Counted from the stretch's first letter, positions 857 through 35,518 are shown. The stretch is DNA of 64,000 nt from an uncultured Bacillales bacterium (GCA_946539445.1 CAMNHK010000002.1:41744-105743); one strand, 5' to 3'. The notes: generated by a model not told the origin, from the letters alone. Numbers and translations are program-made.

Positions 857-1201
857 CTAAGAATGAATTTCTTCATTAGCCCAAAGACTATGTTTATTGC
901 AATAACTATAAGCTTTCATTCCCTCTTGATAAGGAACCGTTACTCTAGGATCATCTCCAGGAACAAAATGTTGAATCACTTGTTTTTCTCCATAATCCAC
1001 TAAAATCCATTCAATATAATGATCTTCTTCCATAACATGATTTACAAATATTTCTACTTGATCCCCTAGAATTTCATACTGAGGAACATGCTTTTCAAAA
1101 GAAGCATCTACTTCATTGGCACGAATGGCTTTATCTTCCACCTCACTAACTTCTTTTAAAACAAGCATAATATTGCCACTATGGCATTTTACAATTTTCA
1201 T
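857..1201 (-). CDS. Superoxide reductase-like protein (desulfoferrodoxin/neelaredoxin Fe-binding domain)
   Basis: 114 aa. The Fe-ligand pattern is present: E-K-H-V-P, N-H-V-M-E-E-D-H-Y-I-E-W and C-N-K-H-S-L-W near the C-terminus, as in 1Fe-SOR. Confidence 0.8.
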   Translation of the reverse strand: MKIVKCHSGNIMLVLKEVSEVEDKAIRANEVDASFEKHVPQYEILGDQVEIFVNHVMEEDHYIEWILVDYGEKQVIQHFVPGDDPRVTVPYQEGMKAYSYCNKHSLWANEEIHS

Positions 1202-1554
1202 ATTCTTTCACTCCATTCTTTTTCTCGAAAACCAACCAAAACTTCAGAATCTGTCAAAAGAATTGGTCGTTTTACTAACATTCCATCACTTGCTAATAGA
1301 TGAATTTTCTCCTTCTCACTAAGAGTAGGAATTTTTTCTTTTAAATGATATTCCCGATACTTCATTCCACTCGTATTAAAGAACTTTTGAATATCCTGTC
1401 CACTCCGAGAAATAATCTCGGAAAGTTCTTTCTCCCCTAAGGATTCCAAAACAATATCTCTAGTAGAAAAAGATAATTTCTTCTCTTCTAAAAAACGCTT
1501 AGCCTTTTGACAAGTAGAACACTTTGGATACCATATAAGTACGATAACAATCAC
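1198..1554 (-). CDS. ArsC/Spx/MgsR-family thioredoxin-fold protein
   Basis: 118 aa. N-terminal Y-P-K-C-S-T-C-Q-K-A-K-R-F-L (CxxC), then FFNTSG..YRE and L-V-K-R-P-I-L. Overlaps the downstream SOR gene by 4 nt. Confidence 0.75.
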   Translation of the reverse strand: MIVIVLIWYPKCSTCQKAKRFLEEKKLSFSTRDIVLESLGEKELSEIISRSGQDIQKFFNTSGMKYREYHLKEKIPTLSEKEKIHLLASDGMLVKRPILLTDSEVLVGFREKEWSERI

Positions 1555-1580: not shown

Positions 1581-1618
1581 AAAAATAGTAAAGAAAAAGA
1601 GTATTTTTAATACTCTTT
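1581..1618 (-). terminator. Terminator after the 1235-aa gene
   Basis: Minus strand: AAAGAGTAT-TAAAA-ATACTCTTT hairpin overlapping the stop codon, followed by TTCTTTACTATTTTT. Confidence 0.6.
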
Positions 1619-4600
1619 TAATAAACTTTTGTAGATGATTCCTCTACTTTAGGAACTTCTCGTAACATATCATTCAAAGATGACTTTTTATAATATTTTT
1701 GATCCATTTGAGAAGCAACCAACACTGCTAAGGCATAAGAACCAATTTCAGAAAATAAAGCTTCTCTTGCATCATTTGGAAGAGAGGAAACAACGGTCAT
1801 TTCTGGAAGAGATTCATTCATATCTCCCAAAGCTTCAGCCCGATTGGATAAAGCTACCATCGTTGAACGAATTGCTCTACGATCATATTTAGAAGGATCT
1901 AAGCTTTCTACAACATCTCCAATGGTTTTATCTAAGGAATCATAGGCAGAACGAGCAACAATGGCAATTTCTTCCAAAGCTTGATCCGCTTGAACAGCTC
2001 CTCTACCATAACGATTCATAATATCTTGAAGGCTATGAGCAACTTCTCCTTTTGCATCAGCATGATAACGAGCCCTTACAATCGCAGAAGAAACCGCAAC
2101 ACTAGTAAACATATCTCTCATAAATTCATCGTCATGGAAGTGATACTCTTCCGCAAAGGAACTACAATACTTGGTTCCTACACTTCTACGACCCACTAAA
2201 CTTCTCGCAACATCTGGTCTCTTAAAGAAACAACTTTCAGAACCTAAGAAACCAGATACGATTGCTTCAACATCGCCATTTCCTAAAGCATCCTCAAATT
2301 CTTGATGATATTCATGGTAACGCTGTTTTAACTCAGAATCCAAAGCATTAACATCTCTCATTCCTCCACGAATAAAAGCATAATTGCCTTCTTCAAAAGC
2401 TTGTTTAATACCTGGAATCTCCGTAGATAATAATACCTCAGCTGCTTTTCTACTCTCCATGATTCCACGAATACAGTAACTTGCACTCTCCATAAGCTTT
2501 TTACGTGCATTATGATAAGCAAATCGTTCTTCTTCTAACAATTTACCAGAACCAATCTTTGTTTCTAAAGATTTAACTTGTCCTAATAAAGAATATAACT
2601 CTAAATAATCTTTTTGAAGGGATTGATCAATTTTTTGAATTCGATCCATTCCATAATCTTTCAAACGACCTATAATCACACGATTTACCGGATTATTAAA
2701 ATGTTTTTTTAGAGAACTAGAAGAATATTCTTTAAATAAAGTATCCATATCTTCTTCACTTAATAGACTCTTCATTCTCTTATCTAATTCTTTTAGTCCT
2801 TCATTTCCAAATCCAGAATTCATAAGATCATGAGAAAGATTTTCTAAAAATTCATAGGTAGCTTTACCAACCGTAGGAACATAGTGAATAACATTATAAA
2901 CCCATTCTCCAGATTGTAATTCTTGAATAAACTTCTTAGAAGCCTTCAAATGCATTGGTCGATAAGCTTTGACTTCTTCCTCTACTGGTTCACCCAACGA
3001 ATTGGTAATTTTACTAAGAATTTCTTCCACTCTTCCAGTAGTATTCTGTTTAGGAACTTCTTTTGACTCTTTACGCAGAATACGAATTCCTTCATAACGA
3101 ATATTAACTTTAGTATTTTCTTTTGCTTTTGCTTGCTCACAAATCTTTTGATAATCTTTTTCACTAATCTGATAACTGTTAATTCCATTAATACGAATTA
3201 GTTTACCAGTTGGATTAATACCATAACGTAATAGAATATGAGCATTTGCATAGATTAAATTGGTATTTTCTACATTTCGATAGAAAGTAATTTCTTCTTC
3301 TTCCATTTCTTCTGGAACCACTACCTTTGGTTTTTGTAATTCAACATCTTTTATATCCACACGATAAGGAGAATATTGATTTTCCGCATTATGTACAATA
3401 AAGGAAACATCATCATTATCAATGTGATAACAAGCTTTTCCATCAATTTTAATTTCTTCTCCAACAGGAACGATATGGAAACGAGCAAGAGCATATTTAT
3501 TAACATAAGCATCATTACCATTATTTTTATCGCGATATAGAAGAATTACTTCTTCCAATCCTCTAGACTCTTCTACTTTTGGTAAAACCGTTTTTTCTTC
3601 CACCTTTTGAACGGTATTTCCTAAATGAATCTCACGAAATGCTACTGTATAAGGAGAATATTGATTATTCATATTTCCAATAATATAGCTAGCATCCTCT
3701 TCCTCGATTGGATAAAAAGAAGCCCCATCAATTCTGACTTCCTCACCCGTTGGAACTAAATTAAAACGAGTAAGGGCATATTTACGAACGTATTTGCGAT
3801 TATTTTGATCTAAATCCGTATAAAGAAGAATTTGTTCTTGAACATCGCGAGCTTCCTGAATCATTTCTTCTGCTACTTCACGAGTAATATCATCATGAAT
3901 ACCTAAATGAACTTCCTCAACAGACATTTGATAAGGAGAATATTGATTATCGGAATTCTTCATAATATATTCAGCATCCTCTAAATCAATTGGATAACAA
4001 GTAGCTCCTTCAATTTTCGTCTCATCTCCGATAGGAACCAAATGGAAACGCTTCATCGTATAATCTCGTGCATATAATTGTCCGTTATTATCCATATCCT
4101 TAAAGAAAGTAACACGTTCTACTACTTCTTTTCGATCTTCTACTTCTACCGCAACACTATGCATTCCTTCAACCACATTTTTTAAATCTTCTGGTTTACT
4201 ACCAGGAGTATAATGTTGAACCATAGTATCATTAATAATCTTCTCAGGAATCTTTTTAGAATGCTGACGAATATTATTCAATTGTCTTTCTTTAACCAAT
4301 AAAGTTTTTGGCTTTTGACCAGCTCTATATTGAACCGATACAGAATAAAGAGTTTGAATAGCATCTAAAGCCGATACCGATTCATTTGCTGCCTTTAAGG
4401 CACTAATTTCTTTAAAAATCTCCTCTTTGGCTTCTTTTAATGTTTGTTTTTCTTCAGGAGTTCTTTCAGAAGCTTTTTTGCTTACAATATCCGCAAGTCC
4501 TTTTTTCTCGAAAATGGCATTTAAAATAGTTCTCTTATTTAAAGCCGCATTGATTTCCGTTAACTCAGCAACGGATATACCAAGAGCTTCTGCCATCTCC

Positions 4601-5325
4601 ATATCTCTTTCAATTTTATTTTTTCTTCTTTTCAAAGAAGTTAATAATTTCTTTTGTTCTTCAATTTGTTGTTTAATCACAATAGATTTTTCATTTTCTT
4701 CTAATTTCTTAGAAGCATAAAATTCACGTAGAGCAGCTAATTCTTCTTCAGACAACAATCCAGAATTTTCTAAACGAGCTTTTTGTTCATCAATTACGGC
4801 TTGTAAACGATTATAAGAAGCTTCATATTCCAAAGCTTTATTCTTTAATTCACTTTGTAAATCACGAATTTGTTTATCCAAAGCATCTAATTCTTCTTGA
4901 AATGCCTCATCCATTTTTGTAGATTGAGCAACAGAAGCCTCTAACTCCGATGTTCTTTCAGAAATTCTTTCAATTAAAGCCGCTCTCTCTTGTCCACTTT
5001 GGGTAACTGCTAACTTCGCTCTTAATTCCTTCAATTCTTGCAAGATATCAGACAAATCTTCTTCTCGAAGAATTTCTTTTTCATCTTCTTGATCTTTTTT
5101 AAGAACACGGTATACAACAAATTTCGTTTGAGCTGTTTCCGAAATACCATCTTGATCATCAGCTCCTTCATAGCCAATCTCAAGAGTAGATTCATCTCCT
5201 ACCTCTACACCAGCAAGCCTCATCATTTGAATAATTCTAGATTTTTGTTCTTCTGGACTCCTTCTGAAACTATCTAATACCAACGTTCCAGAAAATAACT
5301 CTTGTCTTTCTTCTTTAGAATTCAT
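1618..5325 (-). CDS. Giant (1235 aa) cytoplasmic coiled-coil protein with four tandem ~94-aa repeats, unknown function
   Basis: Uninterrupted 3.7-kb ORF in AT-rich DNA with RBS GGGTGGTGA. No signal peptide or N-terminal TM helix. Residues ~85-320 have heptad-like E/K/L/Q-rich sequence. Residues 404-750 hold four repeats, and residues 790-1235 form a helical C-terminal region. Confidence 0.9.
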   Translation of the reverse strand: MNSKEERQELFSGTLVLDSFRRSPEEQKSRIIQMMRLAGVEVGDESTLEIGYEGADDQDGISETAQTKFVVYRVLKKDQEDEKEILREEDLSDILQELKELRAKLAVTQSGQERAALIERISERTSELEASVAQSTKMDEAFQEELDALDKQIRDLQSELKNKALEYEASYNRLQAVIDEQKARLENSGLLSEEELAALREFYASKKLEENEKSIVIKQQIEEQKKLLTSLKRRKNKIERDMEMAEALGISVAELTEINAALNKRTILNAIFEKKGLADIVSKKASERTPEEKQTLKEAKEEIFKEISALKAANESVSALDAIQTLYSVSVQYRAGQKPKTLLVKERQLNNIRQHSKKIPEKIINDTMVQHYTPGSKPEDLKNVVEGMHSVAVEVEDRKEVVERVTFFKDMDNNGQLYARDYTMKRFHLVPIGDETKIEGATCYPIDLEDAEYIMKNSDNQYSPYQMSVEEVHLGIHDDITREVAEEMIQEARDVQEQILLYTDLDQNNRKYVRKYALTRFNLVPTGEEVRIDGASFYPIEEEDASYIIGNMNNQYSPYTVAFREIHLGNTVQKVEEKTVLPKVEESRGLEEVILLYRDKNNGNDAYVNKYALARFHIVPVGEEIKIDGKACYHIDNDDVSFIVHNAENQYSPYRVDIKDVELQKPKVVVPEEMEEEEITFYRNVENTNLIYANAHILLRYGINPTGKLIRINGINSYQISEKDYQKICEQAKAKENTKVNIRYEGIRILRKESKEVPKQNTTGRVEEILSKITNSLGEPVEEEVKAYRPMHLKASKKFIQELQSGEWVYNVIHYVPTVGKATYEFLENLSHDLMNSGFGNEGLKELDKRMKSLLSEEDMDTLFKEYSSSSLKKHFNNPVNRVIIGRLKDYGMDRIQKIDQSLQKDYLELYSLLGQVKSLETKIGSGKLLEEERFAYHNARKKLMESASYCIRGIMESRKAAEVLLSTEIPGIKQAFEEGNYAFIRGGMRDVNALDSELKQRYHEYHQEFEDALGNGDVEAIVSGFLGSESCFFKRPDVARSLVGRRSVGTKYCSSFAEEYHFHDDEFMRDMFTSVAVSSAIVRARYHADAKGEVAHSLQDIMNRYGRGAVQADQALEEIAIVARSAYDSLDKTIGDVVESLDPSKYDRRAIRSTMVALSNRAEALGDMNESLPEMTVVSSLPNDAREALFSEIGSYALAVLVASQMDQKYYKKSSLNDMLREVPKVEESSTKVY
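3076..4116 (-). repeat. Four tandem in-frame protein repeats inside the 1235-aa gene
   Basis: R1 VTFFKDMDNNGQLYARDYTMKRFHLVPIGDETKIEGATCYPIDLEDAEYIMKNSDNQYSPYQMSVEEVHLG. R2 ILLYTDLDQNNRKYVRKYALTRFNLVPTGEEVRIDGASFYPIEEEDASYIIGNMNNQYSPYTVAFREIHLG. R3 VILLYRDKNNGNDAYVNKYALARFHIVPVGEEIKIDGKACYHIDNDDVSFIVHNAENQYSPYRVDIKDVEL. R4 is degenerate (ITFYRNVENTNLIYANAHILLRYGINPTGKLIRINGINSYQIS...). The period is ~94 aa, with acidic linkers. Confidence 0.85.
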
Positions 5326-5340: not shown

Positions 5341-5616
5341 CTATGCATTTGCTTCCTCATCGAATTGTCTTAACACTTCATAAATCATCGCAAGTTCTTT
5401 TTGATCTGTTATATTTTCCAATTGCATGTTCGTATTCAATGGATTATAAGCCGATACATAAATATTTTTTCTACCGTTAGGAGCTACTGTATGATCCGTA
5501 TATCCAACATAAGATTTCATCGTATCTTCGCTATCGAAAGTAAATAATATATCACAATCTACCATTTTTCCATCTTTTTCAAGTTGTATCTTTTCATTTT
5601 CTATATTCCTATTCAT
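5341..5616 (-). CDS. DUF1292 (YrzB/UPF0473-like) small acidic protein
   Basis: 91 aa. D-I-L-F-T-F-D-S-E-D-x-x-K-S-Y-V-G-Y, then Y-x-P...L-x-x-I and E-V-L-x-x-F-D-E-E match the YrzB pattern. RBS GGAGGA. Confidence 0.8.
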   Translation of the reverse strand: MNRNIENEKIQLEKDGKMVDCDILFTFDSEDTMKSYVGYTDHTVAPNGRKNIYVSAYNPLNTNMQLENITDQKELAMIYEVLRQFDEEANA

Positions 5617-5651: not shown

Positions 5652-5680
5652 AGTTTATCATTCCAAGAACAAAAAGTCAA
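5652..5680 (-). promoter_or_regulatory. Sigma-A-type promoter for the DUF1292 and giant-protein genes
   Basis: Minus strand: TTGACT, a 17-nt spacer, then TGaTAAACT (extended -10). It lies between the upstream terminator and the DUF1292 start. Confidence 0.55.
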
Positions 5681-5695: not shown

Positions 5696-5727
5696 AAAAC
5701 AAAAAAAATTCGATAAAAATCGAATTT
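5696..5727 (-). terminator. Terminator after the 172-aa gene
   Basis: Minus strand: AAATTCGAT-TTTT-ATCGAATTT hairpin followed by TTTTTGTTTT. Confidence 0.8.
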
Positions 5728-5732: not shown

Positions 5733-6251
5733 TCACTGTTCTTTGGCTTCTATCTTAACTTGAATAAATTCTTTTGAGTCTAACGCCGTAGTTTGAATCA
5801 TTTTTACATGATAATAAGTATCAAACTTCTCTCCTCCTGGAATATTCTCTCCTACGATAATAGTAGAAGCCTGATCTTGCATTAAATCCTTCTCCTCATC
5901 ATCTTTTGTAACTTCAATCACAGCATTCGTTTTATTCAATATTTGAACCTCATAAGAGATAGTGTCATCATTGATAGTATCTTTTTGATAATTTGTAATT
6001 TTAAATACATATTCATCGGAATTAGATAAAGCAAGAGCATTAATATTAAAAGCAAAATCTGTATTTTCACCCACAATAGGAATGACCAAGTCAGAAGATA
6101 CTTCCTTTTTAGAATCTTGATTCTTTTGGAAAACCAAAACAGTTAAAATCAATACAACTACAATTAGTAATCCAAAGACAATTTTTAAAACCCCATCTTG
6201 CTCCCAAAAAGATTTTTCCTTCATTCTATTTTTCTTTTTCTTCTTATCCAT
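5733..6251 (-). CDS. N-terminally anchored extracytoplasmic protein, unknown function
   Basis: 172 aa. Lys-rich N-terminus, one TM helix (IVFGLLIVVVLILTVLVF), then a beta-rich-looking domain. Starts 1 nt after the upstream stop. Confidence 0.75.
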   Translation of the reverse strand: MDKKKKKNRMKEKSFWEQDGVLKIVFGLLIVVVLILTVLVFQKNQDSKKEVSSDLVIPIVGENTDFAFNINALALSNSDEYVFKITNYQKDTINDDTISYEVQILNKTNAVIEVTKDDEEKDLMQDQASTIIVGENIPGGEKFDTYYHVKMIQTTALDSKEFIQVKIEAKEQ

Positions 6252-6252
6252 A

Positions 6253-7614
6253 TTATTGCTCCAATCTTGTTTTAATAGTCTCTATTTTTGTATTATATAA
6301 ATTCATCTGTTCTTCTGTTAAACTAGATTTTAAAATAGCATCCGATATGTCTTCTTCAATCTTCGCAACATTTTCCACTTTATAATTCAAAAGAACCGTT
6401 CCATTAAGTCGACTTTCTTTATGATCAATAATCTTAAAAGAAAGTTTTTTCTCATTCTGATAAGATTTCTTTTTTGTAATAGAATCAAATTTAGAAGAAT
6501 AAACAATATCATACTTTACATCATCAACATCTAAGGAATAATTAAAGTTCACGTTATGTTGATTTTTTTCAAGGCGAACTTCTCCTAAATGATTTCCTCT
6601 AGTATCCTGAATATCAACCAAAAATTGATGACTAGAATTCTTAACAGGCATTTGATATAACACTTTATCATCCTCAGAATAATAAATGGTTCCAGAAGAA
6701 TAATTTCCTTCATATACAACCAAACTCTTAGAATCTCCATTTAAGTGTAATAATTCAAATTTTAAAGGAGTATAAAGAATTTTGGTAGTATAGATATTCA
6801 AAGTATAAGACTCTTCTTTTGCTAAAAAGGTTTGTTCATCCTTCACTTTATAGCGAGAAAAATTAGAATCAATATTACTTAATATCTTAAAAGCTCCAGG
6901 ATCCTCTTTTAAATCTTTTAAAATTCCCTTTAACAAAGTATGAATCATAGAATCGGTAAAACGAATGGATATCTGATTGACATTTTTCTCTTTATCATCA
7001 ATCATTTGATTTACAACATAGTTTTGGAAATATTCATCCTTCATTTGTCTTTTAATGGAATCCACCAAGAACTGATTCAAATAATCAATATTATCCTTTG
7101 TAGTAATTTCTTCTCCTAATGTTTCAAAGTAATTGCAAGTTCCATCATTTACATAAGTATCCGCTACCCCATCCAAATAAAAATACTGAGTAGAATTGGT
7201 AACAAACAATTTATAGAAAAAGAAATCTTGTTCTCCTAACAAACTATGAATATCCAAATAAGATGTTTTCTTACTCTTATCTTGTTTTATAAGAAAAGAA
7301 GTATTCATCTGATTTAAATTTACCAAGGTATTATACGTTTTAGCACTATCTAAATCCGTATAATAGCGATTCCAGTGATACTCACTATCTACTTCAAATT
7401 TTAAATCTCCACCAATGGTAAATTTATCTCCCACAACAAGAGCATTATCCACTTTTGTATATTTTAAAACGTTACTGCTAACTTCATCTACCACTTTTCC
7501 AAAGATAGCACTAGGCTTTGACAAGCGATTAAAATAAAGTCCAACCCCTATAAAAGCAAATGCTACTAAAATAAAAAGGATTAAAAGGATTAATAACCAT
7601 TTTCTACGTTTCAT
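6253..7614 (-). CDS. N-terminally anchored extracytoplasmic protein (453 aa from the preferred start), unknown function
   Basis: The track ORF extends to 7656, but that start lies inside a consensus promoter. The ATG at 7612-7614 gives MKRRKWLLILLILFILVAFAFIGV, a typical signal-anchor. The rest is N/K/D/Y-rich and soluble. Confidence 0.75.
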   Translation of the reverse strand: MKRRKWLLILLILFILVAFAFIGVGLYFNRLSKPSAIFGKVVDEVSSNVLKYTKVDNALVVGDKFTIGGDLKFEVDSEYHWNRYYTDLDSAKTYNTLVNLNQMNTSFLIKQDKSKKTSYLDIHSLLGEQDFFFYKLFVTNSTQYFYLDGVADTYVNDGTCNYFETLGEEITTKDNIDYLNQFLVDSIKRQMKDEYFQNYVVNQMIDDKEKNVNQISIRFTDSMIHTLLKGILKDLKEDPGAFKILSNIDSNFSRYKVKDEQTFLAKEESYTLNIYTTKILYTPLKFELLHLNGDSKSLVVYEGNYSSGTIYYSEDDKVLYQMPVKNSSHQFLVDIQDTRGNHLGEVRLEKNQHNVNFNYSLDVDDVKYDIVYSSKFDSITKKKSYQNEKKLSFKIIDHKESRLNGTVLLNYKVENVAKIEEDISDAILKSSLTEEQMNLYNTKIETIKTRLEQ

Positions 7615-7638
7615 ATCAACACATCCTATACTATTACC

Positions 7639-7666
7639 ATTATAGCAAAATCTCATTCTTTGTCAA
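7639..7666 (-). promoter_or_regulatory. Near-consensus sigma-A promoter for the 453-aa and 172-aa genes
   Basis: Minus strand: TTGACA (7661-7666), a 16-nt spacer, then TGcTATAAT (-10 at 7639-7644). It sits directly downstream of a terminator. Confidence 0.7.
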
Positions 7667-7680
7667 TAAATGTCAACTCA

Positions 7681-7703
7681 TAAAAAAAGAACCCTTAGGT
7701 TCT
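7681..7703 (-). terminator. Terminator ending the mraZ-to-177-aa transcription unit
   Basis: Minus strand: AGAACC-TAAG-GGTTCT hairpin containing the TAA stop of the 177-aa gene, followed by TTTTTTT. Confidence 0.7.
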
Positions 7704-8228
7704 AGATTTTGTAATCAAAGCGATTTTATAGTCAAAAGATTTTTTTCCAGTAGAAGAACTTGGATTATAGTATACAGATATTTTTAATTGTAATTCTTCA
7801 CCAGGAGGAATGATTTTTCCTTTTACATCCGAAAGAGTAATTTGAACCGGACTAATCAATTTTTCCAAACGACTATTATGATAATCAGGAGATTCTACAA
7901 TATCCACTATTTCAGCAGGTAAAGAGCCATTATTTTGAATCGTCGCTAAATAGATAATTTCGTCATGAACGGAATACAAAGTAAAAGAAAAATCAATTTC
8001 TTTTTTTTGTTGAGTGATTTCTGCGTTTCCTAGTGGCTCAATCGTCGACCCCATAATAGAAGAGGATTTCTTAATATCCACAAAAGAAACATCAAAAGAA
8101 TGTTCTTCCTCTATTTTTTGCTTTAAATGGATCGATAACACAATAAAACCGACACTTAGGAAAACAACACAGAAGGACAACACTAAAATAATACTATTAC
8201 GTACCCGAATCATTCTCTTCACGAACAT
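7695..8228 (-). CDS. N-terminally anchored extracytoplasmic protein, unknown function
   Basis: 177 aa with TM helix IILVLSFCVVFLSVGFIVLSI, then a beta-rich-looking domain. Overlaps the upstream gene by 10 nt. An alternative start lies at 8213. Confidence 0.75.
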   Translation of the reverse strand: MFVKRMIRVRNSIILVLSFCVVFLSVGFIVLSIHLKQKIEEEHSFDVSFVDIKKSSSIMGSTIEPLGNAEITQQKKEIDFSFTLYSVHDEIIYLATIQNNGSLPAEIVDIVESPDYHNSRLEKLISPVQITLSDVKGKIIPPGEELQLKISVYYNPSSSTGKKSFDYKIALITKSRT

Positions 8229-9106
8229 TCACCTTCCTTTACCTGATCAATCGAACCCATATAGCAAACGGAATATACTTGAGATTGATCTACAAATTCA
8301 AGATAAGCATAAATATGCCCATCCATAACATAATACCAACTATTAGCCGTTGGATAATAAGAATACGAATCTCTAGCTTCGATAGCCGTAAGATCTATTC
8401 TAGGATCATTTTTTTCTGCCATCCGAATCTGCTGTTCTCTCACCATATTCTCCATTTTTTGATAAACAATATTCCCATAATGTAAAACTGTGTGATCACT
8501 TAATTCTCCACTTTCACTAGAAATAGAGGTTTTTTGTAAATGATTTTTAAAAACACGAATGAATTCTTTGGAATAAAAATCCAAACTTCGTAGCATAGAA
8601 CGATCACTGGAAGAAGTGGATAATTCAAATTCTTGGCAAAGATTGGATAATGTATTTTCCTTTTCTTCCATCGTAGCAATAACATCATACTTACGGAGTG
8701 TTTCTTGGAAGAAAGAAAGAAAATCAGAATAATAATCATCCGAATAGTGAGTAATAAAGATTCGTGAGTTTGTCTTTAAGAAATCATTTTGAATCAAAAT
8801 TGGTATCAATTGCTGAATTCCTTCTTTTAACGATTTCCCTTCCAAGTTTTGATTATAAAGGCATTCACAATTTGGATGAAAAAAGAACAAATGAATCAAG
8901 GTCTCATCTGAATTTAATACAAGAGCAAACCGAATCGACTGATCCACTTCTATCTCCATCATAGTTTGGTATTCATTAACTTTTAAAAACGCATCACTAG
9001 AGCCTTGACTCTCTCGGTACTCAGGGATTAATTCTCGAACGGTATAATATCCTAACGCTCCTAAGACAAATAAAATTTCCAATAAGATTATTATCTTTTT
9101 CTCCAT
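8219..9106 (-). CDS. N-terminally anchored protein, unknown function, translationally coupled to PBP2B
   Basis: 295 aa with TM helix IIILLEILFVLGALGYY. The ATG lies 3 nt after the PBP2B stop, and the RBS GGAG sits inside the PBP2B 3' end. Confidence 0.8.
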   Translation of the reverse strand: MEKKIIILLEILFVLGALGYYTVRELIPEYRESQGSSDAFLKVNEYQTMMEIEVDQSIRFALVLNSDETLIHLFFFHPNCECLYNQNLEGKSLKEGIQQLIPILIQNDFLKTNSRIFITHYSDDYYSDFLSFFQETLRKYDVIATMEEKENTLSNLCQEFELSTSSSDRSMLRSLDFYSKEFIRVFKNHLQKTSISSESGELSDHTVLHYGNIVYQKMENMVREQQIRMAEKNDPRIDLTAIEARDSYSYYPTANSWYYVMDGHIYAYLEFVDQSQVYSVCYMGSIDQVKEGECS

Positions 9107-9109
9107 AAA

Positions 9110-11263
9110 CTACTCCGTCAAATATCGAGGAGCTAAAACAAGTTGAATTTCCATACCTTCGACAATAGGAGTGCCCTCGGCTATAGATTGAGAGGTAACA
9201 TAGCCAACTCCATCTAGACTTACTTTCAAACCAAGTTTTTGTAAAATATCTTTTGCGACCTTGGAAGATAAACCTGTAACATTGGGAACCGTTTGTGCAG
9301 GATCATTCGTAATGAAATAAACAACATCTAAATTCGTAATCGTATCAAAACTACTTGGAGATTGTTTAATAACTTTATCTCCATTTCCTAAAAGAACATA
9401 ACGTACTCCTAAAGAATCCAAAGTAACTTTGGCATTCTCCACTTTTTGATTAGAAAAATTAGGAAGTTCTATCGAATGAACTTCTAACGTAGAGATTTCA
9501 AAGTCCTGATTTCCATAATATTTAGAAACATTCTGAACAATTTCTTTAACAGCATTGCTAACCGGTTTTTGACTACCTCCACTAGGTCTTTTAACAGAAG
9601 CATAAATGATGATTTGTGGATTACTTTTTGGATAGATACCAGCGAAAGAGGAAATGATATCTTCTTTTCCAGACAAATAACCTCCGCCATTTTCATTAGC
9701 AATTTGAGCCGTTCCCGTTTTTCCAATTAATTCTCCACTTTCGATTCGATAACCACTTCCGGTATTACCAATTCCATTGACGCAATCATCCATAAGTTGA
9801 ATCATTTTCTGAACGGTAGCAGTAGAAGCCACTCTCTCAATTTCTTCTCTTTCATTTTCTAAAATAACTTCCCCAGTATCGGAATCAACAATTTTAGAAA
9901 TAATATAAGGTTCTAATAACATACCATCATTGGTAAGAGGAGTCATAGCTTTTACATTCTGAATGGGGGTAGTCGTAATTCCCTGTCCAAATCCAGCATT
10001 GTAAATTTCGGTCTCATATTTAAACTCTAAATTTCCTTTCGATTCATTTGGTAATTCAATACCCGTCTTACGACCAAATCCCAATTTACGGAAATACTGA
10101 CGAAGCATCACACTAGACATGTGACGACTTATCATATTAATAACTCCTACGTTACTACTCATAGCATAACCTTTATCAAAAGTAATATAACCCCATCCAT
10201 TACGATTCCAGTCCCCAATTTCCGTTCCATCAGACGTTACATAAACACCGGATTTATAAGTTTCGGTACCATCATAAACACCATTTTCCATAGCAGCCAT
10301 ATAAGTAAACGTCTTCATAGTACTTCCTGGCTCATAAGGAGCAGAAACCATCATATCCAAATAATTCGTAATATCTCGTACATTTGGATCGAAAGCAGGA
10401 GAAGTAGACGTAGCAAGAACAGCCCCTGTTTTTGCATCTAAAATCGTCACATGAAACCATTCCCAATCATAATCCCGATCGGAATTATGCAAAGCTTGCT
10501 CCAAGAAAAATTGAATATTTTCATCAATCGTTAAATAAATATCTTTTCCTTGAATCGCATCTTTAACATCCACAGGAGTATTAGCAATTCGATATCCTTG
10601 TAAATCCTTTTGATAGCGAGTATAACCATCTTCTCCCTTTAAAATTTCATTATATTGCTTCTCAATTCCCATTTCCCCTTTAATAGTAGAATCTTCATCA
10701 CTAGTTGCTTTCGTATATCCCAATGTATAAGAAGCAAAATTTCCTTTTGGATAATATCTTTTAAAAGTTTCAATAAAACCAAGACCTGGTAAATTCAAAT
10801 CATCAATTTGCTTTTTAACAAGTTCTGTTAATCCTTTCCCTTTTACCCCAAATTCTGTTTGATATAAATTTTCTTTCGAAAGATAATAAAGAATTTCTTC
10901 TTTTTCCATTCCCAAAATAGGAGCTAATTTCTCAGCCGTCTCTTCTTTGTTAATAACATGTTGCGGTTTTTTTTCATTAGTAGTACGTTTTGGATCTAAA
11001 TAAGCGATTAATGTATAAGAAGATACTGTTTGAGCAAGAGCTTCTCCATTAACGGAATAAATCGTTCCTCTTTTAGCGGGTTCTATATCCGTACGAGTGG
11101 TTCTTTTACTAGCTAGTTTTTGTAAATTAATACCATCAATTTCCGTGGAAATACCTAGTTGAATTACTCTTCCAATCATAAGGCAAAATAAAAGAAGAGA
11201 ACCAAAAATCAATATTTTCGAATATCTTATGGTATTTTTTCTCTTCTTTTTCACGGATCTCAC
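9110..11263 (-). CDS. pbpB: Class B penicillin-binding protein (PBP2B/FtsI/SpoVD type) with two PASTA domains
   Basis: 717 aa with an N-terminal anchor. Transpeptidase motifs S-T-M-K, S-S-N and K-T-G-T-A are present, plus two C-terminal PASTA-like repeats. Positioned after ftsL. Confidence 0.95.
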   Translation of the reverse strand: MRSVKKKRKNTIRYSKILIFGSLLLFCLMIGRVIQLGISTEIDGINLQKLASKRTTRTDIEPAKRGTIYSVNGEALAQTVSSYTLIAYLDPKRTTNEKKPQHVINKEETAEKLAPILGMEKEEILYYLSKENLYQTEFGVKGKGLTELVKKQIDDLNLPGLGFIETFKRYYPKGNFASYTLGYTKATSDEDSTIKGEMGIEKQYNEILKGEDGYTRYQKDLQGYRIANTPVDVKDAIQGKDIYLTIDENIQFFLEQALHNSDRDYDWEWFHVTILDAKTGAVLATSTSPAFDPNVRDITNYLDMMVSAPYEPGSTMKTFTYMAAMENGVYDGTETYKSGVYVTSDGTEIGDWNRNGWGYITFDKGYAMSSNVGVINMISRHMSSVMLRQYFRKLGFGRKTGIELPNESKGNLEFKYETEIYNAGFGQGITTTPIQNVKAMTPLTNDGMLLEPYIISKIVDSDTGEVILENEREEIERVASTATVQKMIQLMDDCVNGIGNTGSGYRIESGELIGKTGTAQIANENGGGYLSGKEDIISSFAGIYPKSNPQIIIYASVKRPSGGSQKPVSNAVKEIVQNVSKYYGNQDFEISTLEVHSIELPNFSNQKVENAKVTLDSLGVRYVLLGNGDKVIKQSPSSFDTITNLDVVYFITNDPAQTVPNVTGLSSKVAKDILQKLGLKVSLDGVGYVTSQSIAEGTPIVEGMEIQLVLAPRYLTE

Positions 11264-11273
11264 TTCCTAGTAA

Positions 11274-11570
11274 TTAATGATCTTGAACGGATCTTATATT
11301 ATTATTATTATAACTCAATCCTTGTTCTTCTGCAACTTCTTGAATCTTTGTTAAGGAAGCCAACTCATCAATGGTCATTTCTAACGACTCATTCGTCTTT
11401 TTTTGAATTTCAATTTCTTTCTTTTGCTTCTCTACTTCAAAATTTACTTTGGCTAAAGTTGCTTTAAAAAAAACAATAGAAATAGGAGCTATCACAACTA
11501 AAAAAACAGCCAAAGAATATAATAATCGTTCAAATTTTGATATTTTTACCTTTTGTTTAACTGTTTTCAT
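11274..11570 (-). CDS. ftsL: Cell division protein FtsL
   Basis: 98 aa, single TM helix plus coiled coil, ending EEQGLSYNNNNI. Canonical position between rsmH and the PBP gene. Confidence 0.8.
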   Translation of the reverse strand: MKTVKQKVKISKFERLLYSLAVFLVVIAPISIVFFKATLAKVNFEVEKQKKEIEIQKKTNESLEMTIDELASLTKIQEVAEEQGLSYNNNNIRSVQDH

Positions 11571-11581
11571 TTTTCCATCTC

Positions 11582-12514
11582 CTATTTTATTCTTTCAATA
11601 ACACGTAATTTAGAGCTTCTAGCTCTTGGATTGTTTTCAAGTTCTTCCTCACTTGGAACAATTGCTTTATTTTCAACCAAACGAAAGTCTGGTAAATACT
11701 CTTCTGGTATATTTGGCATACCTTTTAATTTTGGATCAATTTCACATTTCTCTTTAAAGAAGTTTTTTACGATTCGATCTTCTAAAGAATGAAAGGTAAT
11801 AACCGCTACTCTACCACCAACCGATAATAATTCAAGAGCTTGTTCTAGAGCAGGTTCTATCACATCCAACTCATGGTTCACTTCAATACGAATAGCTTGA
11901 AAGATTTGCCTTGCAGGATGCTTTTCCATTCGAAACTTCATAGGAACAGCACTTTTAATAACCTCTACCAATTCTAAAGTAGATTCAATTGGTTTATTTT
12001 GGCGATACTCCACAATTTTTTTCGCAATATTATTCGCAAATTTATCTTCTCCATATCGAAAAAAGATTCTAGAAAGTTCTTCCTTCGAATAGGTATTGAC
12101 AACATCATAAGCCGTTAAATCTTGATCTTGATCCATTCTCATATCAAGTCTGGCATCCACATGATAGGAAAAACCTCTCTCCCCTTCATCCAATTGAGGG
12201 GAAGAGACTCCTAAATCAAATAACACCCCGTCCACCTTTTCAACACCAAGTTTATTTAATTCGTCTTTCATATGGACGAAATTGCTTTTGATGATAGTGA
12301 AGTTAGTACCGACCTTAGAGAGACGATCGGTACTATGCCGAATTGCTTCACTATCTTGGTCAAAGGCGAATAAATACCCCATATTTATTCTTTCTAAGAT
12401 GTTACTACTATGTCCACCATAGCCAAGTGTCGCATCTACTATAATACTATTTTCTTTTAAATTTAGGGAGGAAATAGATTCATTTAGTAATACACTTATA
12501 TGTTTTTCCATCAT
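11582..12514 (-). CDS. rsmH: 16S rRNA (cytosine1402-N4)-methyltransferase RsmH (MraW)
   Basis: 310 aa with H-I-S-V-L-L-N-E, D-A-T-L-G-Y-G-G-H-S, F-D-L-G-V-S-S-P-Q-L-D and ITFHSLEDR. Confidence 0.95.
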   Translation of the reverse strand: MMEKHISVLLNESISSLNLKENSIIVDATLGYGGHSSNILERINMGYLFAFDQDSEAIRHSTDRLSKVGTNFTIIKSNFVHMKDELNKLGVEKVDGVLFDLGVSSPQLDEGERGFSYHVDARLDMRMDQDQDLTAYDVVNTYSKEELSRIFFRYGEDKFANNIAKKIVEYRQNKPIESTLELVEVIKSAVPMKFRMEKHPARQIFQAIRIEVNHELDVIEPALEQALELLSVGGRVAVITFHSLEDRIVKNFFKEKCEIDPKLKGMPNIPEEYLPDFRLVENKAIVPSEEELENNPRARSSKLRVIERIK

Positions 12515-12954
12515 AAGTTCACACTCTCGTTAAATAAATTTTCGGCTATGTCTGACATATTTTCTTTTGTAGAATCAAAGAAGGCATCCCAAGCTTCTTG
12601 GGACCATATTTCAAGGCGATCTCCCGTGCCAATAACGACACAGTCTTTGATAAGACTTGCATATGCAATAAGAGGGGCCGGAAGGTTCACACGACCTTGC
12701 TTATCCAATTCTACATCTGTAGCACCTGACATAAAGAAACGATTAAAAGTTCTCGCATCTTTTTTAGTGAAAGGCAAAGAGTTTAGTTTATCGGTTATTT
12801 TTGCCCAGTTCTCTTGAGAATAGACAAAAAGGCAATTTTCGATACCACGAGTAATTACAAAATTCTCACCAAGAGAATCACGAAATTTCGCAGGAATAAT
12901 AATTCTTCCCTTTTCGTCAATCGTATGATGATATTCTCCTATAAACATAAACAT
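12511..12954 (-). CDS. mraZ: Transcriptional regulator MraZ
   Basis: MFMFIGEYHHTIDEKGRIIIPAKFR and the second DKQGRVNLP SpoVT/AbrB-like repeat. The track ORF starts further upstream (12981) on a non-ATG codon. ATGs at 12954 and 12948 follow a GGGGG RBS. Confidence 0.9.
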   Translation of the reverse strand: MFMFIGEYHHTIDEKGRIIIPAKFRDSLGENFVITRGIENCLFVYSQENWAKITDKLNSLPFTKKDARTFNRFFMSGATDVELDKQGRVNLPAPLIAYASLIKDCVVIGTGDRLEIWSQEAWDAFFDSTKENMSDIAENLFNESVNL

Positions 12955-12992
12955 CCCCCACTTTTCACCACATTCAACCACTACCTACTCTA

Positions 12993-23949: not shown

Positions 23950-23980
23950 CCACAAAAAAAAAGAATGTTCTCACATTCTT
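23950..23980 (-). terminator. Terminator after ftsZ
   Basis: Minus strand: AAGAATGT-GAGA-ACATTCTT hairpin starting at the ftsZ stop, followed by TTTTTTTTTGTGG. Confidence 0.85.
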
Positions 23981-25119
23981 TAAAAATTTCTATCTCTTAA
24001 GAAAGATGGCATTTCAATATCTACATTACTATTCATAGATCCTGAATCATCGTCATCATCCGCTTGAAGAACTTCTGGTTGATAAGAATAATCTTCACGA
24101 GTTGGAATTCTTCTAGAAGGTTGTGTATTACCAACTGGATAAGAATTATCAACTGGTTCCGCTTTCTTAGATTTATCAAATCCTGTTGCAATAACAGTAA
24201 CAATAACTTCATCATTTAAGTTTTCATTAATAACAGAACCAAAGATAGTATTAATATCTGTATTAGCAGCACTACGTACCACTTCAGCTGCTTGCTCTGC
24301 TTCAAATAACGTTAAGTTTACTCCACCAGTAATATTGATAATCGCATCGGTAGCTCCTTCAATAGAAGTTTCCAATAATGGAGAAGAAACCGCTTGTTTA
24401 GCAGCTTCTAAAGCTCTATCTTCACCCATACCAATACCAATACCGATAATAGCGCGTCCACTCTTTTCCATAACAGCTTTAACATCCGCAAAGTCCAAGT
24501 TAACAAGTCCAACAACAGCAATCAAATCAGATATAGATTGAACTCCTCGACGAAGAACATTATCAACTTCTTTAAAAGCTTCTAACATTGGAGTAGACTT
24601 ATCAATAATCTCTCTTAAACGATCATTTGGAATAACAATTAAAGTATCGACATGTTTCTTTAATTCTTCAATTCCAGCCAAAGCATTTTCCATTCTTCTT
24701 TTTCCTTCAAAAGAAAATGGTTTTGTAACAATGGCAACCGTTAAAGCTCCAAGCCCTTGAGCAATCTCTGCAACAACAGCAGCAGCACCTGTTCCAGTAC
24801 CTCCACCCATTCCGGCTGTAATAAATACCATATCAGCTCCACTAAGAGCATCTTCAATTTCTTTCTTAGATTCAACGGCAGATTCTTTTCCAACTTCTGG
24901 TTTTCCTCCAGCACCTAACCCATCAGTAAGAGTAGCCCCAATTTGAATTTTAACATCTGCTTTTGAAGTATTTAAAACTTGTAAATCGGTATTAGCAGCA
25001 ATAAATTCTACCCCTTTAACACCAGATTCTACCATTCGATTAATAGCGTTTCCACCACCGCCACCTAATCCGATGACTTTGATTTTCGCTAATTGATCCA
25101 TTTCTAATCCGCCTATCAT
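23980..25119 (-). CDS. ftsZ: Cell division GTPase FtsZ
   Basis: [27 protein letters not shown] (tubulin signature) and NLDFADV. RBS AAGGAGG lies 7 nt upstream of the ATG. Confidence 0.98.
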
Positions 25120-25131
25120 ACCTTTTCCTCC

Positions 25132-26367
25132 TTAACGATCGAGAAAGTGTCCAAACACTTTACTAAGCATATTTTCATTTGTAAGATTCGAATCAATTGA
25201 TAATAGTGTTTCAACATCCTCTTTACTAACCATATTATAATGTTTTCCTCTCAAGGATAACTTATCATCAAAATATTTTGTTATTCCGTAGCAACTACTA
25301 TATTGATTATGACGAACTCCCATAGTAGTCATTCTACATACTTTTGCTATAAAGCCAAATTCCTGTTCTACTAAGTACTGGAATCCAGCCATCTCACTCA
25401 AACCACCTGTTATAATTATATAACGTATTTCCCTATTTGTTAAGTTTTTTATTTCATTTTTCGCAAGTTTTAAAATTTCCCGAACACGAGCTTCCACTAC
25501 CTTAGAAACATTCAATTGATTTACTTCTTTTTTCGTATCTTTATCAATCGCAATTTCCCATATTTCATTACTATCTGCATAGCTAGACATAGCCATAGCA
25601 AATTTCTCTTTCATTTTACGAGATTCACTTAACTTGGATTTAAATACATAGGTAATATCTTTATCTACATAACAACTTCCAACGGGAAGCAAACTATTTT
25701 TGATTGGAATTCCTTTATTAAAAACCGAAACATTGGTAGCTTCTTCCCCAATATTAATAATAGCTCCTACTAATTCATCATATTTACGATTTTTAATCGT
25801 ATAATAATCCCCAATCGAAGTAAAAGCAATATCTACCGTCTCAATACCACTAAGTTTTAAAGTCTCTAAAATACGATACAAAGGTTCTTTTGGAACCGTA
25901 CTAATCACAACTCTAGTTTCTAGTACACTTCCCTTCATACCTTTCGGATCTCGAATGTTGGCATGATCATCTACCGTAAAACTAATAGGCATAGCAGTTA
26001 CCAACTCATCCGTAGAAAAATCCTGTCCCTTGATGGCATCTAATAAAACATTACTAACATCTAAACCAGTAATTTCGTTATAATCAATAATATTCGTAGT
26101 TCCTTGAATAATATCCATACGACAATTAGCCGGTGGAATACAAGCAACGGCTTTTACAATTTTAATTCCCAAAGAATCCTGAATTTGTTTTAAGGCTTTT
26201 TTGATACTAGCAACGGCTGCTTTGGTATCCGTTATAAAGCCATTTCGGATTCCGTTCGAAGGACTACTAACAGAGGCTAAAACATTAAATCTATCATTTA
26301 CTTTCTCAGAAACAACAATCTTTATACTACTTGTACCTAAATCGATTCCTGTATAAATATCACTCAT
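25132..26367 (-). CDS. ftsA: Cell division protein FtsA
   Basis: 411 aa, actin-like ATPase (IYTGIDLGTSSIKIVV, ITGGLSEMAGF). Immediately upstream of ftsZ. Confidence 0.95.
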   Translation of the reverse strand: MSDIYTGIDLGTSSIKIVVSEKVNDRFNVLASVSSPSNGIRNGFITDTKAAVASIKKALKQIQDSLGIKIVKAVACIPPANCRMDIIQGTTNIIDYNEITGLDVSNVLLDAIKGQDFSTDELVTAMPISFTVDDHANIRDPKGMKGSVLETRVVISTVPKEPLYRILETLKLSGIETVDIAFTSIGDYYTIKNRKYDELVGAIINIGEEATNVSVFNKGIPIKNSLLPVGSCYVDKDITYVFKSKLSESRKMKEKFAMAMSSYADSNEIWEIAIDKDTKKEVNQLNVSKVVEARVREILKLAKNEIKNLTNREIRYIIITGGLSEMAGFQYLVEQEFGFIAKVCRMTTMGVRHNQYSSCYGITKYFDDKLSLRGKHYNMVSKEDVETLLSIDSNLTNENMLSKVFGHFLDR

Positions 26368-28035: not shown

Positions 28036-29469
28036 TTAGAATTCTTTCTTTTCTCCTATTTTATAGATTCGATAGTCTTCGAAAGAATAAGACTTCAAGG
28101 AAGAAGAATAAACCAGATCCAATTGATAATTTTGATCCAAATAATCAACGATTAGATTATCTTCCCAATTGTAATTCGTATAAACATAGTAGACCAAATC
28201 ATGAGAATCCACAAACTCCCCAATTTCCCTCATAACAGGCATATCATCTCGTTTTGCTTTCCAAACAATATAAGTAAAAAACTCTTTAGAATTTGGATGA
28301 TAAAATCGATTAGATGTATAAGGAATTAAAGAAGAACACATATGATCACAGTTACAAAGGATAATGGCATGATCCTCCACCTCTTTCTGGATGTATTTAG
28401 CCGTCTCAATCCCATTGGAATAAGGATATAAATAATCAAAAGAATAAGCTTTATAAACCGTAAAGCAAGAACAAATGGATAAAATAGATAAACCAATAAG
28501 GAAAGGTTTTGTAATGTCACTGGATAATAAGAATACACAAAATAAAAAGAGACTATACACCAAAGCGGATGAATAAATAGAAGCTCCTCCCAAAACAAAA
28601 TCGAGTAAAAATGCCATAAAAAAGGAAGAACACAAAAACAGCCAAAATACAAAACGATTGCTACGAAACATCCAAAATAATACAAAGACAAGAATACCAA
28701 ACGTTACAAATACAGAAAGAAAAGAATAATTGCACGTCTGCCCTGCTAAGAAAGAAAAGAAAAAGATAACGAAATTCGATAGTGAAAATTCCGTATTCAT
28801 TCTTAATCCATCATTTGGTACTAAAACAGGATAAAATTGGCCATAAAATAGAATTCCAAAGAATCCTAAAACAGCTAGTGCTTGATACATCTTCTTCCGA
28901 ACAGAGGAATCATTCTTTGAAAAATATATTTCATAAAAATAAAAACCAAAAACATGAAATCCTACAAAGCCAAACATTAATAAATGAGTATTTAATAAGA
29001 GTCCTAAAATAACCGCTAATAAAATTGGTTTTTCCTTGCGATAAGGAAATATCCAAACATAAAGTGTAAGCAAGAAAAAGATAAGGGAATAACTTCTACC
29101 AACAACACTAAATTCATAGAGAACTGGATAAGAAAACAAAATACAAAACTTAATCCAATCCCTTCCAGGAATTTTAAAAAGCAATAAGTACATAGAAAGA
29201 ATCATAAAAAAAGCCGAAAAAATATTTACAATAGAAGGTCCTACTCCTAATTTAACAAAGGGATATAACAAAAGATAATAAAAAATAGGATGTCCTTCAT
29301 AATGAGCATTTTGAAATATTTGCCATAAATTCATATCTCGACACAACAAATAAGATTGTGCCTCATCTCTCCAGTTTTCATGATGAAAAAACATAAAAAG
29401 GATACCCACACAATATAAAGCAAATAATCCAATTGTAAGCCATTTTCTTTTATTGAAACTCATAAACAT
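28036..29469 (-). CDS. Polytopic GT-C-like membrane protein (divergent member of the array)
   Basis: ~477 aa with ~11 hydrophobic helices. W-R-D-E-A-Q-S-Y follows helix 1 (a DE-type first-loop motif as in ArnT/PMT-type GT-C enzymes). Soluble C-terminal domain ends E-D-Y-R-I-Y-K-I. The start overlaps the upstream gene. Confidence 0.6.
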   Translation of the reverse strand: MFMSFNKRKWLTIGLFALYCVGILFMFFHHENWRDEAQSYLLCRDMNLWQIFQNAHYEGHPIFYYLLLYPFVKLGVGPSIVNIFSAFFMILSMYLLLFKIPGRDWIKFCILFSYPVLYEFSVVGRSYSLIFFLLTLYVWIFPYRKEKPILLAVILGLLLNTHLLMFGFVGFHVFGFYFYEIYFSKNDSSVRKKMYQALAVLGFFGILFYGQFYPVLVPNDGLRMNTEFSLSNFVIFFFSFLAGQTCNYSFLSVFVTFGILVFVLFWMFRSNRFVFWLFLCSSFFMAFLLDFVLGGASIYSSALVYSLFLFCVFLLSSDITKPFLIGLSILSICSCFTVYKAYSFDYLYPYSNGIETAKYIQKEVEDHAIILCNCDHMCSSLIPYTSNRFYHPNSKEFFTYIVWKAKRDDMPVMREIGEFVDSHDLVYYVYTNYNWEDNLIVDYLDQNYQLDLVYSSSLKSYSFEDYRIYKIGEKKEF

Positions 29470-32066: not shown

Positions 32067-32075
32067 AATATCACC

Positions 32076-33404: not shown

Positions 33405-33409
33405 TTTCT

Positions 33410-34756: not shown

Positions 34757-34826
34757 AAAATCCCCTCCATTTTTCACTTCTATCATACCATATTTTAATC
34801 GAAAAAAAAAAGAAAGTTATACTCAA

Positions 34827-35516: not shown

Positions 35517-35518
35517 TT

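Follow-up and report, generated by a model that had tools for sequence, protein, structure and literature searches.

The subject of this analysis is a gene pair in a 64,000-nucleotide (nt) stretch of DNA from an uncultured Bacillales bacterium (GCA_946539445.1, CAMNHK010000002.1:41744-105743); 'the window' below means this whole stretch, and positions are counted from its first letter. The longest open reading frame (ORF) of the window, 3.7 kb at 1618-5325, encodes a protein of 1235 amino acids (aa), here called the giant, and the gene directly upstream of it encodes a small DUF1292 protein, here called the partner. A first-pass annotation had described the two as a self-contained bicistronic unit and the giant as a cytoplasmic coiled-coil protein of unrecognised family, possibly a scaffold. 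The DUF1292 pairing and the linkage of the pair to a block of genes following PBP2B are solid, and the giant can be placed in a sizeable unannotated family that is defined by its helical C-terminal domain. A scaffold role beside the envelope and division machinery is a tentative reading of these findings. The pair and its presumptive signals are as follows, with (-) for the minus strand:

1618-5325 (-): giant gene, ATG start, 1235 aa, stop codon at 1618-1620 (ORF list)
5341-5616 (-): partner gene (DUF1292, 91 aa), upstream of the giant gene with a 15-nt gap
5652-5680 (-): promoter-like site TTGACT-17-(TG)A-TAAACT, matching the consensus at 9 of 12 positions
5698-5727 (-): terminator-like hairpin and U-run after a 172-aa gene; hairpin at 5706-5727, folding free energy -7.4 kcal/mol, z score -2.7
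1590-1619 (-): terminator-like hairpin with U-run immediately downstream of the giant gene; hairpin at 1595-1619, folding free energy -8.9 kcal/mol, z score -3.5

The DUF1292-giant pair and its gene block

The partner matches the Pfam family PF06949 with 27.8 bits (gathering score 24) over model positions 2-73 of 75. Its best score against the YrzB-type models of NCBIfam (PRK13678.x) is 41.4 bits, and the equivalog cut-offs of 87-147 are not reached; by these profile scores, it is a divergent member of DUF1292. The partner is like the YrzB/UPF0473 proteins of Bacillus, Listeria and Enterococcus in length (~90 aa) and motif pattern, but it differs from them in scoring far below the equivalog level, in lying away from yrzL, ruvX and mltG, and in being translationally linked to the giant, with GGGTGGTGA preceding the giant ATG as a ribosome-binding site. 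It is flanked by the giant gene and by the gene of a membrane protein of 172 aa, and it does not belong to a yrzL(ireB)-ruvX-yrzB-mltG series, as the first-pass annotation had remarked. No second DUF1292-like ORF is present in the window, and no ruvX or mltG homologue is found among the window ORFs scanned against Pfam. A search of PDB sequences with the partner returns nothing, and PADLOC has no family for it. To our knowledge, DUF1292/YrzB is conserved in Bacillus, Listeria, Enterococcus and Staphylococcus and has never been assigned a role; a literature search on DUF1292, YrzB and UPF0473 found no functional study.

In every locus for which upstream sequence is available, a DUF1292 or DUF1292-like gene lies directly upstream of the giant gene. 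The loci (L numbers) and one further contig, named after its giant protein (P number), are listed here:

Window, L001, L002-L004, L015/L016, L020 and L021: DUF1292 gene upstream
L005-L013: DUF1292 gene upstream, found by tblastn
L017: DUF1292 gene upstream, 36% identical, E 2e-12
L018 and L019: DUF1292 gene upstream in the loci of minimal members
P0002 contig: 90-aa gene, a putative DUF1292 counterpart, 11 nt upstream of the giant gene

Where the genes have been called, the gap between the two is 1-21 nt, with the exception of L021. There, ~1 kb (9009-10001) separates the DUF1292 gene from the called start of the giant (P0174, 705 aa); in the near-identical L020, a giant gene of 1025 aa begins 12 nt after DUF1292, and the gap in L021 probably reflects a frameshift or a gene that was called too short. 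The partner is by far the more conserved of the two, with 60-70% identity across 11 loci versus 27-36% for the giant (tblastn); 10 partner proteins were also aligned. The pairing persists for distant, repeat-less members of the giant family in other genomic contexts (L017, L018 and L019). Thus, the coordinates, the Pfam match and the pairing in all of these loci agree with the bicistronic arrangement proposed by the first-pass annotation.

The same annotation gave the pair a promoter of its own, and a conserved promoter is indeed indicated. At the equivalent place upstream of DUF1292 in 8 related loci, the arrangement TTGAC[TA], a 17-nt spacer and TAxxxT recurs, with TG in six of the eight (sequences read by eye); taken alone, however, the site in the window is no better than chance, and promoter-like sites are not enriched in the region (41 observed versus 35.6 expected from shuffles). 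The bracketing of the pair by terminators also holds: both hairpins, although missed by a terminator scan that requires three GC pairs, are AT-rich, fold better than shuffled sequences and are followed by U-runs. A hairpin and T-run comparable to the one at 5698-5727 is present in L003 and L004 and absent from L015, L020 and L021.

The pair is bicistronic, and its pairing is conserved, but 'self-contained' does not describe it. In most genomes, rather than standing free, it closes a block that runs mraZ-rsmH-ftsL-PBP2B, four genes for bitopic membrane proteins, DUF1292 and giant. In the window, the block upstream of the pair consists of:

9110-12981 (-): mraZ-rsmH-ftsL-PBP2B operon, from the Pfam annotation of the identical contig L001 and the ORF coordinates
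5733-9106 (-): four genes for type-II bitopic membrane proteins, each with an N-terminal basic tail and one hydrophobic helix
8219-9106 (-): first bitopic gene, 295 aa, starting 3 nt after the PBP2B stop codon
7695-8228 (-): second bitopic gene, 177 aa, with a 10-nt overlap with the first
6253-7656 (-): third bitopic gene, 467 or 453 aa
5733-6251 (-): fourth bitopic gene, 172 aa

None of the four bitopic proteins has a match in Pfam, NCBIfam, PHROG or PADLOC. The order of their orthologues is unchanged in 12 related loci (tblastn), and in a 13th, L007, the 467-aa gene has no match; L020 and L021 also have this order, and the protein sizes across the block are ~290, 175, 450 and 170 aa. The genes after the giant vary by locus and include ArsC-like, ABC transporter, integrase, cation ATPase and acetate kinase genes. 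In L017, the DUF1292-giant pair is found elsewhere, beside a two-component system and a tRNA synthetase. Further upstream, the window also holds murB, divIB, ftsA and ftsZ, and the organism therefore has a conventional wall and FtsZ-based division.

One detail concerns the third bitopic gene. A perfect consensus promoter (TTGACA-16-TATAAT with TG, 12/12) at 7639-7666 (-), preceded by a terminator-like hairpin at 7688-7703, overlaps the annotated ATG of the 467-aa ORF. Because of this overlap, the start is probably Met15 (7614), giving the 453-aa product that is called on L001.

Modules and family of the giant protein

The 1235-aa protein is matched exactly on two metagenome contigs, and the GC content around its gene is ~33%. 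Its N-terminus is hydrophilic, with neither a signal sequence nor a transmembrane segment on the Kyte-Doolittle scale, in agreement with the first-pass annotation; the protein is real and, judged by its sequence, cytoplasmic. It is built from four kinds of module, namely an N-domain, a helical region, repeats and a C-terminal domain:

5098-5304 (-): N-domain, aa 8-76, with the motif FxGTxxLD...IGYEGADD...SETxxTKFVVYR, from an iterated hidden Markov model (HMM) and alignment
4141-5085 (-): helical, partly coiled-coil region, aa 81-395, from heptad score and conserved alignment columns
3898-4131 (-): repeat R1, aa 399-476
3616-3849 (-): repeat R2, aa 493-570, the unit used for modelling
3331-3564 (-): repeat R3, aa 588-665
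3073-3309 (-): repeat R4, aa 673-751, a divergent terminal type
1621-3048 (-): C-terminal all-helical domain, aa 760-1235, in a shortened form in the window copy
2170-2193 (-): Gly/Arg loop GRRSVGTK of the C-terminal domain, aa 1045-1052, family consensus G.RSvG.kyYsP, a candidate functional site
2077-2112 (-): first small-residue-rich hydrophobic helix MFTSVAVSSAIV, aa 1072-1083, with a 12-residue apolar run
1705-1761 (-): second hydrophobic helix ALFSEIGSYALAVLVASQM, aa 1189-1207, with a 14-residue apolar run

All parts of the layout given by the first-pass annotation can therefore be located: the N-domain, heptad-like stretches, four tandem repeats and a helical C-terminal domain. The N-domain, for which a putative β-α-β-β-like fold is described, is found in 42 copies across 23 close homologues when the HMM is iterated. 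A common origin of the N-domain and the repeat was considered and rejected (hhalign probability 0.2%). Conserved motifs in the region of aa 81-395 are YEASY, KRRKNKI, LPEKI and Y.PG..PED. Within it, three segments (aa 126-188, 211-248 and 291-323) show heptad periodicity beyond composition, the generic mark of a coiled coil, and exceed the 99th percentile of shuffles on what is a crude, home-made score. The description 'coiled-coil protein' thus fits in part, in that heptad segments are present; they make up only about a quarter of the protein, and the part that defines the family is the C-terminal domain. The 78-aa repeats are separated by acidic linkers. Pairwise identity is 39-49% among R1-R3 and 21-32% between R4 and these three; a repeat of the R4 type also comes last in the homologues P0003, P0016, P0017 and P0023 (sequences read). 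Every region of the giant is net acidic, with a charge of -6 to -20 per region.

Searches with the giant give no Pfam family at E <= 0.1, no match in NCBIfam or PADLOC and, in PHROGs, nothing beyond a noise match at E 0.074. Pfam returns two sub-threshold noise matches and none above cut-offs for ten distant relatives, and no recurrent weak match for the members of the C-domain, repeat and N-domain alignments, each of which was scanned. Among PDB sequences, there is nothing for the giant as a single sequence or for profiles of the three modules. Structure models were made with AlphaFold2. The C-terminal domain, from a 10-sequence alignment, is modelled with helices only, with a mean predicted local distance difference test (pLDDT) of 80.1 and a predicted template modelling score (pTM) of 0.76; repeat R2, from 44 family repeat sequences, has the order β-β-α-β-β-α-β with pLDDT 91.6 and pTM 0.79. 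In Foldseek comparisons, the best match of the C-terminal domain has E 0.6 and a template modelling (TM) score <0.2 against the PDB, and E 0.18 and TM 0.12 against BFVD. The repeat has no significant PDB match either (best E 0.47). Its top matches, aIF1/eIF1 (SUI1) proteins, have the same β-β-α-β-β-α-β order at E 0.47-1.8, probability <= 0.21, TM 0.34-0.38 and a root-mean-square deviation of 5.5-6 Å; connector segments of MutS reach TM ~0.5 at E 2, which is not significant. All three modules thus match no known family, and two of them have confident models that lack a counterpart in the PDB. 'Unrecognised family' accordingly stands as the first-pass annotation had it, with no confident profile hit to a characterised family in Pfam, NCBIfam, PDB profile or Foldseek searches. 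Whatever the function, the giants contribute three domain families that have no annotation, represented by the N-domain, the 78-aa repeat and the helical C-terminal domain. In the DNA itself, Rfam detects no RNA family anywhere in the window.

Several known systems were tried as candidates. EzrA is ruled out since the giant has no N-terminal transmembrane anchor, no Pfam match and no significant PDB fold match for its helical domain, and DivIVA/GpsB since it has no DivIVA-type domain. An ATPase of the SMC/Rad50/MukB kind is excluded by the lack of a Pfam or NCBIfam match, by a C-terminal domain without strands and by a conserved GxxxxG loop without GK[ST]. A PADLOC defence system is excluded as well, with no family for the giant, the DUF1292 protein or the four proteins upstream. 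For HMW1/HMW2 of Mycoplasma or an EAGR-box protein, no Pfam family lies above cut-offs in the giant or in 10 diverse relatives.

A word-indexed search finds 23 homologues of 1082-1783 aa, none of which has a Pfam domain or a name. The mapping of distribution and neighbourhood that the first-pass annotation had proposed was run, and in addition to the DUF1292 pairing and the PBP2B-linked block it shows a much wider family: an exhaustive HMMER search, run with a C-terminal domain profile, returns at least 306 clusters (defined at 50% identity) at E <= 1e-3, 205 of them at E <= 1e-30. Truncated entries aside, the domain sits at or near the C-terminus of proteins of ~750-2000 aa. Copy numbers were counted in 151 apparently full-length members. 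The C-terminal domain is universal in this set, while the N-domain occurs in 0-5 copies (none in 106 members) and the β-β-α-β-β-α-β repeat in 0-9 copies (none in 79). The minimal members, P0093 and P0148, consist of a short coiled coil and the C-terminal domain, and the core of the family is an N-terminal coiled coil followed by an all-helical C-terminal domain of 480-600 aa. Since this domain is universal and the N-domain and repeat are optional, the family is defined by its helical C-terminal part rather than by coiled coil or repeats. A second search, with a profile built from distant C-domains, adds only further unnamed members without Pfam domains.

The only name on any member is 'hypothetical protein [Bacilli bacterium]'. 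Ten loci come from GTDB species genomes, all of them metagenome-assembled genomes of uncultured organisms, with sheep, rabbit, mouse, yak and human gut among the sources; most carry the title Bacilli, Bacillales or Erysipelotrichaceae, and one has the label Muribaculaceae. The family is thus sizeable and unannotated, and its named members and genome loci all belong to uncultured Bacilli, mostly from gut or rumen.

A large, fast-evolving protein with variable repeat numbers could also be carried as cargo by a mobile element or phage or belong to a defence/toxin system, perhaps resembling a tape-measure protein or a polymorphic toxin. Tape-measure proteins also have small-residue-rich hydrophobic helices, and in one locus, L003, an integrase lies 1.3 kb downstream. 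This explanation is largely refuted, and we regard it as highly improbable: beyond the PHROGs, PADLOC and BFVD results given above, which also speak against a phage tape-measure or virion protein, tblastn against 50,697 phage records and 72,556 plasmid records finds no match, IMG/VR contains no relative, and the gene has a fixed chromosomal place beside core genes in ~20 loci. A polymorphic toxin is further disfavoured by the conserved end of the giant being its C-terminus, the opposite of what is seen in such toxins.

The C-terminal domain and its short form

The C-terminal domain has a conserved Gly/Arg loop, in which G292 is conserved in 99% and S290 in 92% of 155 members. In the model, its place is the sole internal loop of low confidence (residues 282-287 of the C-domain).

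Near the end of the protein, the first-pass annotation had pointed out a hydrophobic stretch, SYALAVLVASQM, followed by basic residues. The stretch is as described: the most hydrophobic 19-aa window of the giant is aa 1189-1207, with a Kyte-Doolittle value of 1.32, and DQKYYKK comes next. It is not alone, as the two top 19-residue windows lie at constant positions in 153 members, always ~280 and ~50 residues from the C-terminus, and Ala, Ser, Thr and Gly are abundant in the corresponding helices, as in LFTTVAISSATISAINAIR and MLSTLVCAASAAGLALRVS. Such constancy could mean that the C-terminal domain is embedded in the membrane, with the two helices as a transmembrane or re-entrant pair that may expose the intervening 100-250 aa outside the cell; the apolar runs of typical members (16-18 residues), with basic or aromatic flanks on the would-be cytoplasmic sides, are in keeping with this. 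The hydrophobicity itself argues otherwise, with summed Hessa insertion energies of +1.9 to ~+7 kcal/mol in the 153 members, never <= +1.5, and Kyte-Doolittle values <1.6. On these simple scales, no segment of the giant has the hydrophobicity and length of a transmembrane helix. The apolar runs of the window protein have just 12 and 14 residues, both stretches lie inside helices with pLDDT ~90 in the model, and there is no signal sequence or earlier transmembrane segment to start translocation. A membrane-embedded domain is thus improbable. SYALAVLVASQM appears too short and too weakly hydrophobic for a membrane anchor, and we read both helices as buried core helices. The two are also alike (…SA.NAIRVH and …SA.GLA.RVS), which suggests an internal duplication or a paired function.

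The window copy is an atypical member of the family. Over 155 members, 67 columns of the C-terminal domain are at least 80% conserved; the window copy retains 34 of these, against a family median of 61, and its conservation score is joint third-lowest among ~150 members. Thirteen of the conserved columns are lost in a deletion of ~70 columns (profile 330-400), which contains the family motif ER..LD...W.....Y...D...H and is carried only by the window protein and P0002. At 20 further conserved positions the residue is substituted, and SGGxHGxEEDxKA reads STEIPGIKQAFEE. The G.RSvG.kyY loop is kept, as is F.xDDxF.RD, the counterpart of the family's DYrdDPFirD.

With half of the conserved positions gone, one might suppose that the window copy is decaying or has been re-purposed and that the ancestral function of the family is lost. 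However, its reading frame runs uninterrupted for 1235 codons in a genome that is AT-rich, and the ribosome-binding site, promoter-like site and terminators are in place. P0002 (1183 aa), the closest homologue at 44-56% identity and from another assembly, shares the deletion and the substitutions, is likewise intact and lies among the same genes, which indicates continued purifying selection on the short form; for these reasons the short form appears to be maintained rather than decaying, and we consider decay or re-purposing quite improbable, more so than a membrane-embedded domain. By sequence comparison, then, the window copy is a derived short form that has lost a conserved subdomain and has an intact ORF in at least two assemblies.

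Proposed role and further features of the neighbourhood

The reading that we favour is that the giant is an elongated, oligomeric cytoplasmic scaffold that binds the DUF1292 protein and works alongside the envelope or division machinery linked to PBP2B. We infer this, with a probability of roughly 0.4, from the conservation of the pair, the modular and mostly helical protein without enzymatic or nucleotide-binding signature, and the linkage to DUF1292 and ftsL-PBP2B. In such a structural protein, two or more copies of the giant would associate through the coiled coil. The working end would be the helical C-terminal domain, which contains the invariant Gly/Arg loop and would be the likeliest docking site for the co-translated, far more conserved DUF1292 protein. 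The N-domains and repeats, with acidic linkers between them, could be spacers or adaptors, the number of which would set length and valency in each lineage. The assembly would probably act on the cytoplasmic face of the machinery encoded just upstream.

The first-pass annotation had suggested a scaffold or cytoskeleton-like factor and had seen in the location a hint of a role in the envelope, division or sporulation; the conserved synteny makes a scaffold, division or envelope role appear more plausible. The reading with the best support, a lineage-specific coiled-coil scaffold beside division genes, belongs to a kind that is already known (DivIVA, EzrA and HMW-type proteins). DivIVA, GpsB and EzrA are non-enzymatic cytoplasmic proteins, largely helical or coiled-coil, that are encoded near the PBP/FtsZ machinery or act with it; the giant is comparable, with ftsZ, ftsA, divIB and PBP2B all present in the window. 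It differs from all three in having no sequence or fold similarity to them and in carrying globular repeats, a C-terminal domain of 480-600 aa with an unmatched fold and an obligatory DUF1292 partner gene, and its size is 5-10 times that of DivIVA or GpsB. Proteins of the HMW1/HMW2 type of Mycoplasma, which belongs to the Bacilli in the broad GTDB sense, are giant, acidic, fast-evolving and modular cytoplasmic structural proteins that contain coiled coils and are restricted to their lineage. The giant is likewise large, acidic, coiled-coil-containing, lineage-restricted and modular; unlike the Mycoplasma proteins, it occurs in hosts with a cell wall and FtsZ and in another genomic context, and the HMW proteins have no DUF1292 partner. 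That the DUF1292-giant pair and the four bitopic proteins together form a lineage-specific scaffold for the divisome or cell-wall synthesis, and with it a new class of cytoskeletal or division protein made up of the helical C-terminal domain and the repeat, both without a PDB fold match, plus the N-domain, is a bolder proposal that we consider doubtful.

Several points weigh against the scaffold reading. PBP2B is 68-80% identical across the loci, so the synteny could be inherited gene order in one lineage, and L017 departs from it in all but the DUF1292 pairing. DUF1292 alone does not point to the envelope, as its canonical neighbours in other Firmicutes include RuvX. The window copy has lost half of the family-conserved positions, and the function of the family may therefore be altered here. 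The coiled-coil evidence is a crude heptad test; binding of DUF1292 by the C-terminal domain and oligomerisation remain predicted, and the function is deduced from context.

A rival explanation is a cytoplasmic role that has nothing to do with envelope or division, such as a scaffold associated with nucleic acids, ribosomes or stress, with the position after PBP2B as inherited order. The different neighbourhood of the L017 pair is consistent with such a role. Canonical DUF1292 (yrzB) is co-transcribed with ruvX, and RuvX is a nuclease. The top, though weak, fold matches of the repeat are eIF1/SUI1 and the MutS connector. The usual ruvX-DUF1292 arrangement is given for E. faecium in one preprint. 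On the other side, those fold matches are not significant (E >= 0.47; TM 0.34-0.51), the acidity of the giant throughout disfavours nucleic-acid binding, and the genes of the block that follow PBP2B persist although the neighbours downstream differ between loci. We regard an unrelated role as unlikely, but as a stronger competitor than the membrane-embedded, decay or mobile-cargo explanations.

If the scaffold reading is true, an order-level group of common uncultured gut and rumen Bacilli builds part of its division or wall apparatus from proteins that lack a counterpart in model organisms, and DUF1292/YrzB gains a first testable partner, context and functional handle. If it is wrong, the giants are another lineage-restricted hypothetical family, of which metagenomes hold many.

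Some further features of the neighbourhood can be recorded. After the giant, at 857-1554 (-), lie genes for an ArsC/Spx-like protein of 118 aa and a desulfoferrodoxin-family protein of 114 aa, with a 4-nt overlap (1198-1201); in L004 and the P0002 contig, the ArsC-like gene is absent from this place and the desulfoferrodoxin gene stays. A second PBP gene and then mraY follow ~6 kb downstream of the giant, beyond the window (L001 20112-23708).

The dcw genes lie in at least three separate pieces, mraZ-rsmH-ftsL-PBP2B (9110-12981), ftsA-ftsZ (23980-26367) and murB-divIB (34827-36484), with unrelated genes between them. Five consecutive ORFs of 438-478 aa without Pfam match occupy 28036-34786 (-), between divIB (34827-35516) and an amine-oxidase-like gene that is followed by ftsA. 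Four of the five (438, 440, 442 and 458 aa) are tandem paralogues with 27-38% identity; by their hydrophobic N-terminal sequences they resemble membrane proteins. The five ORFs form an unusual insertion in the dcw cluster.

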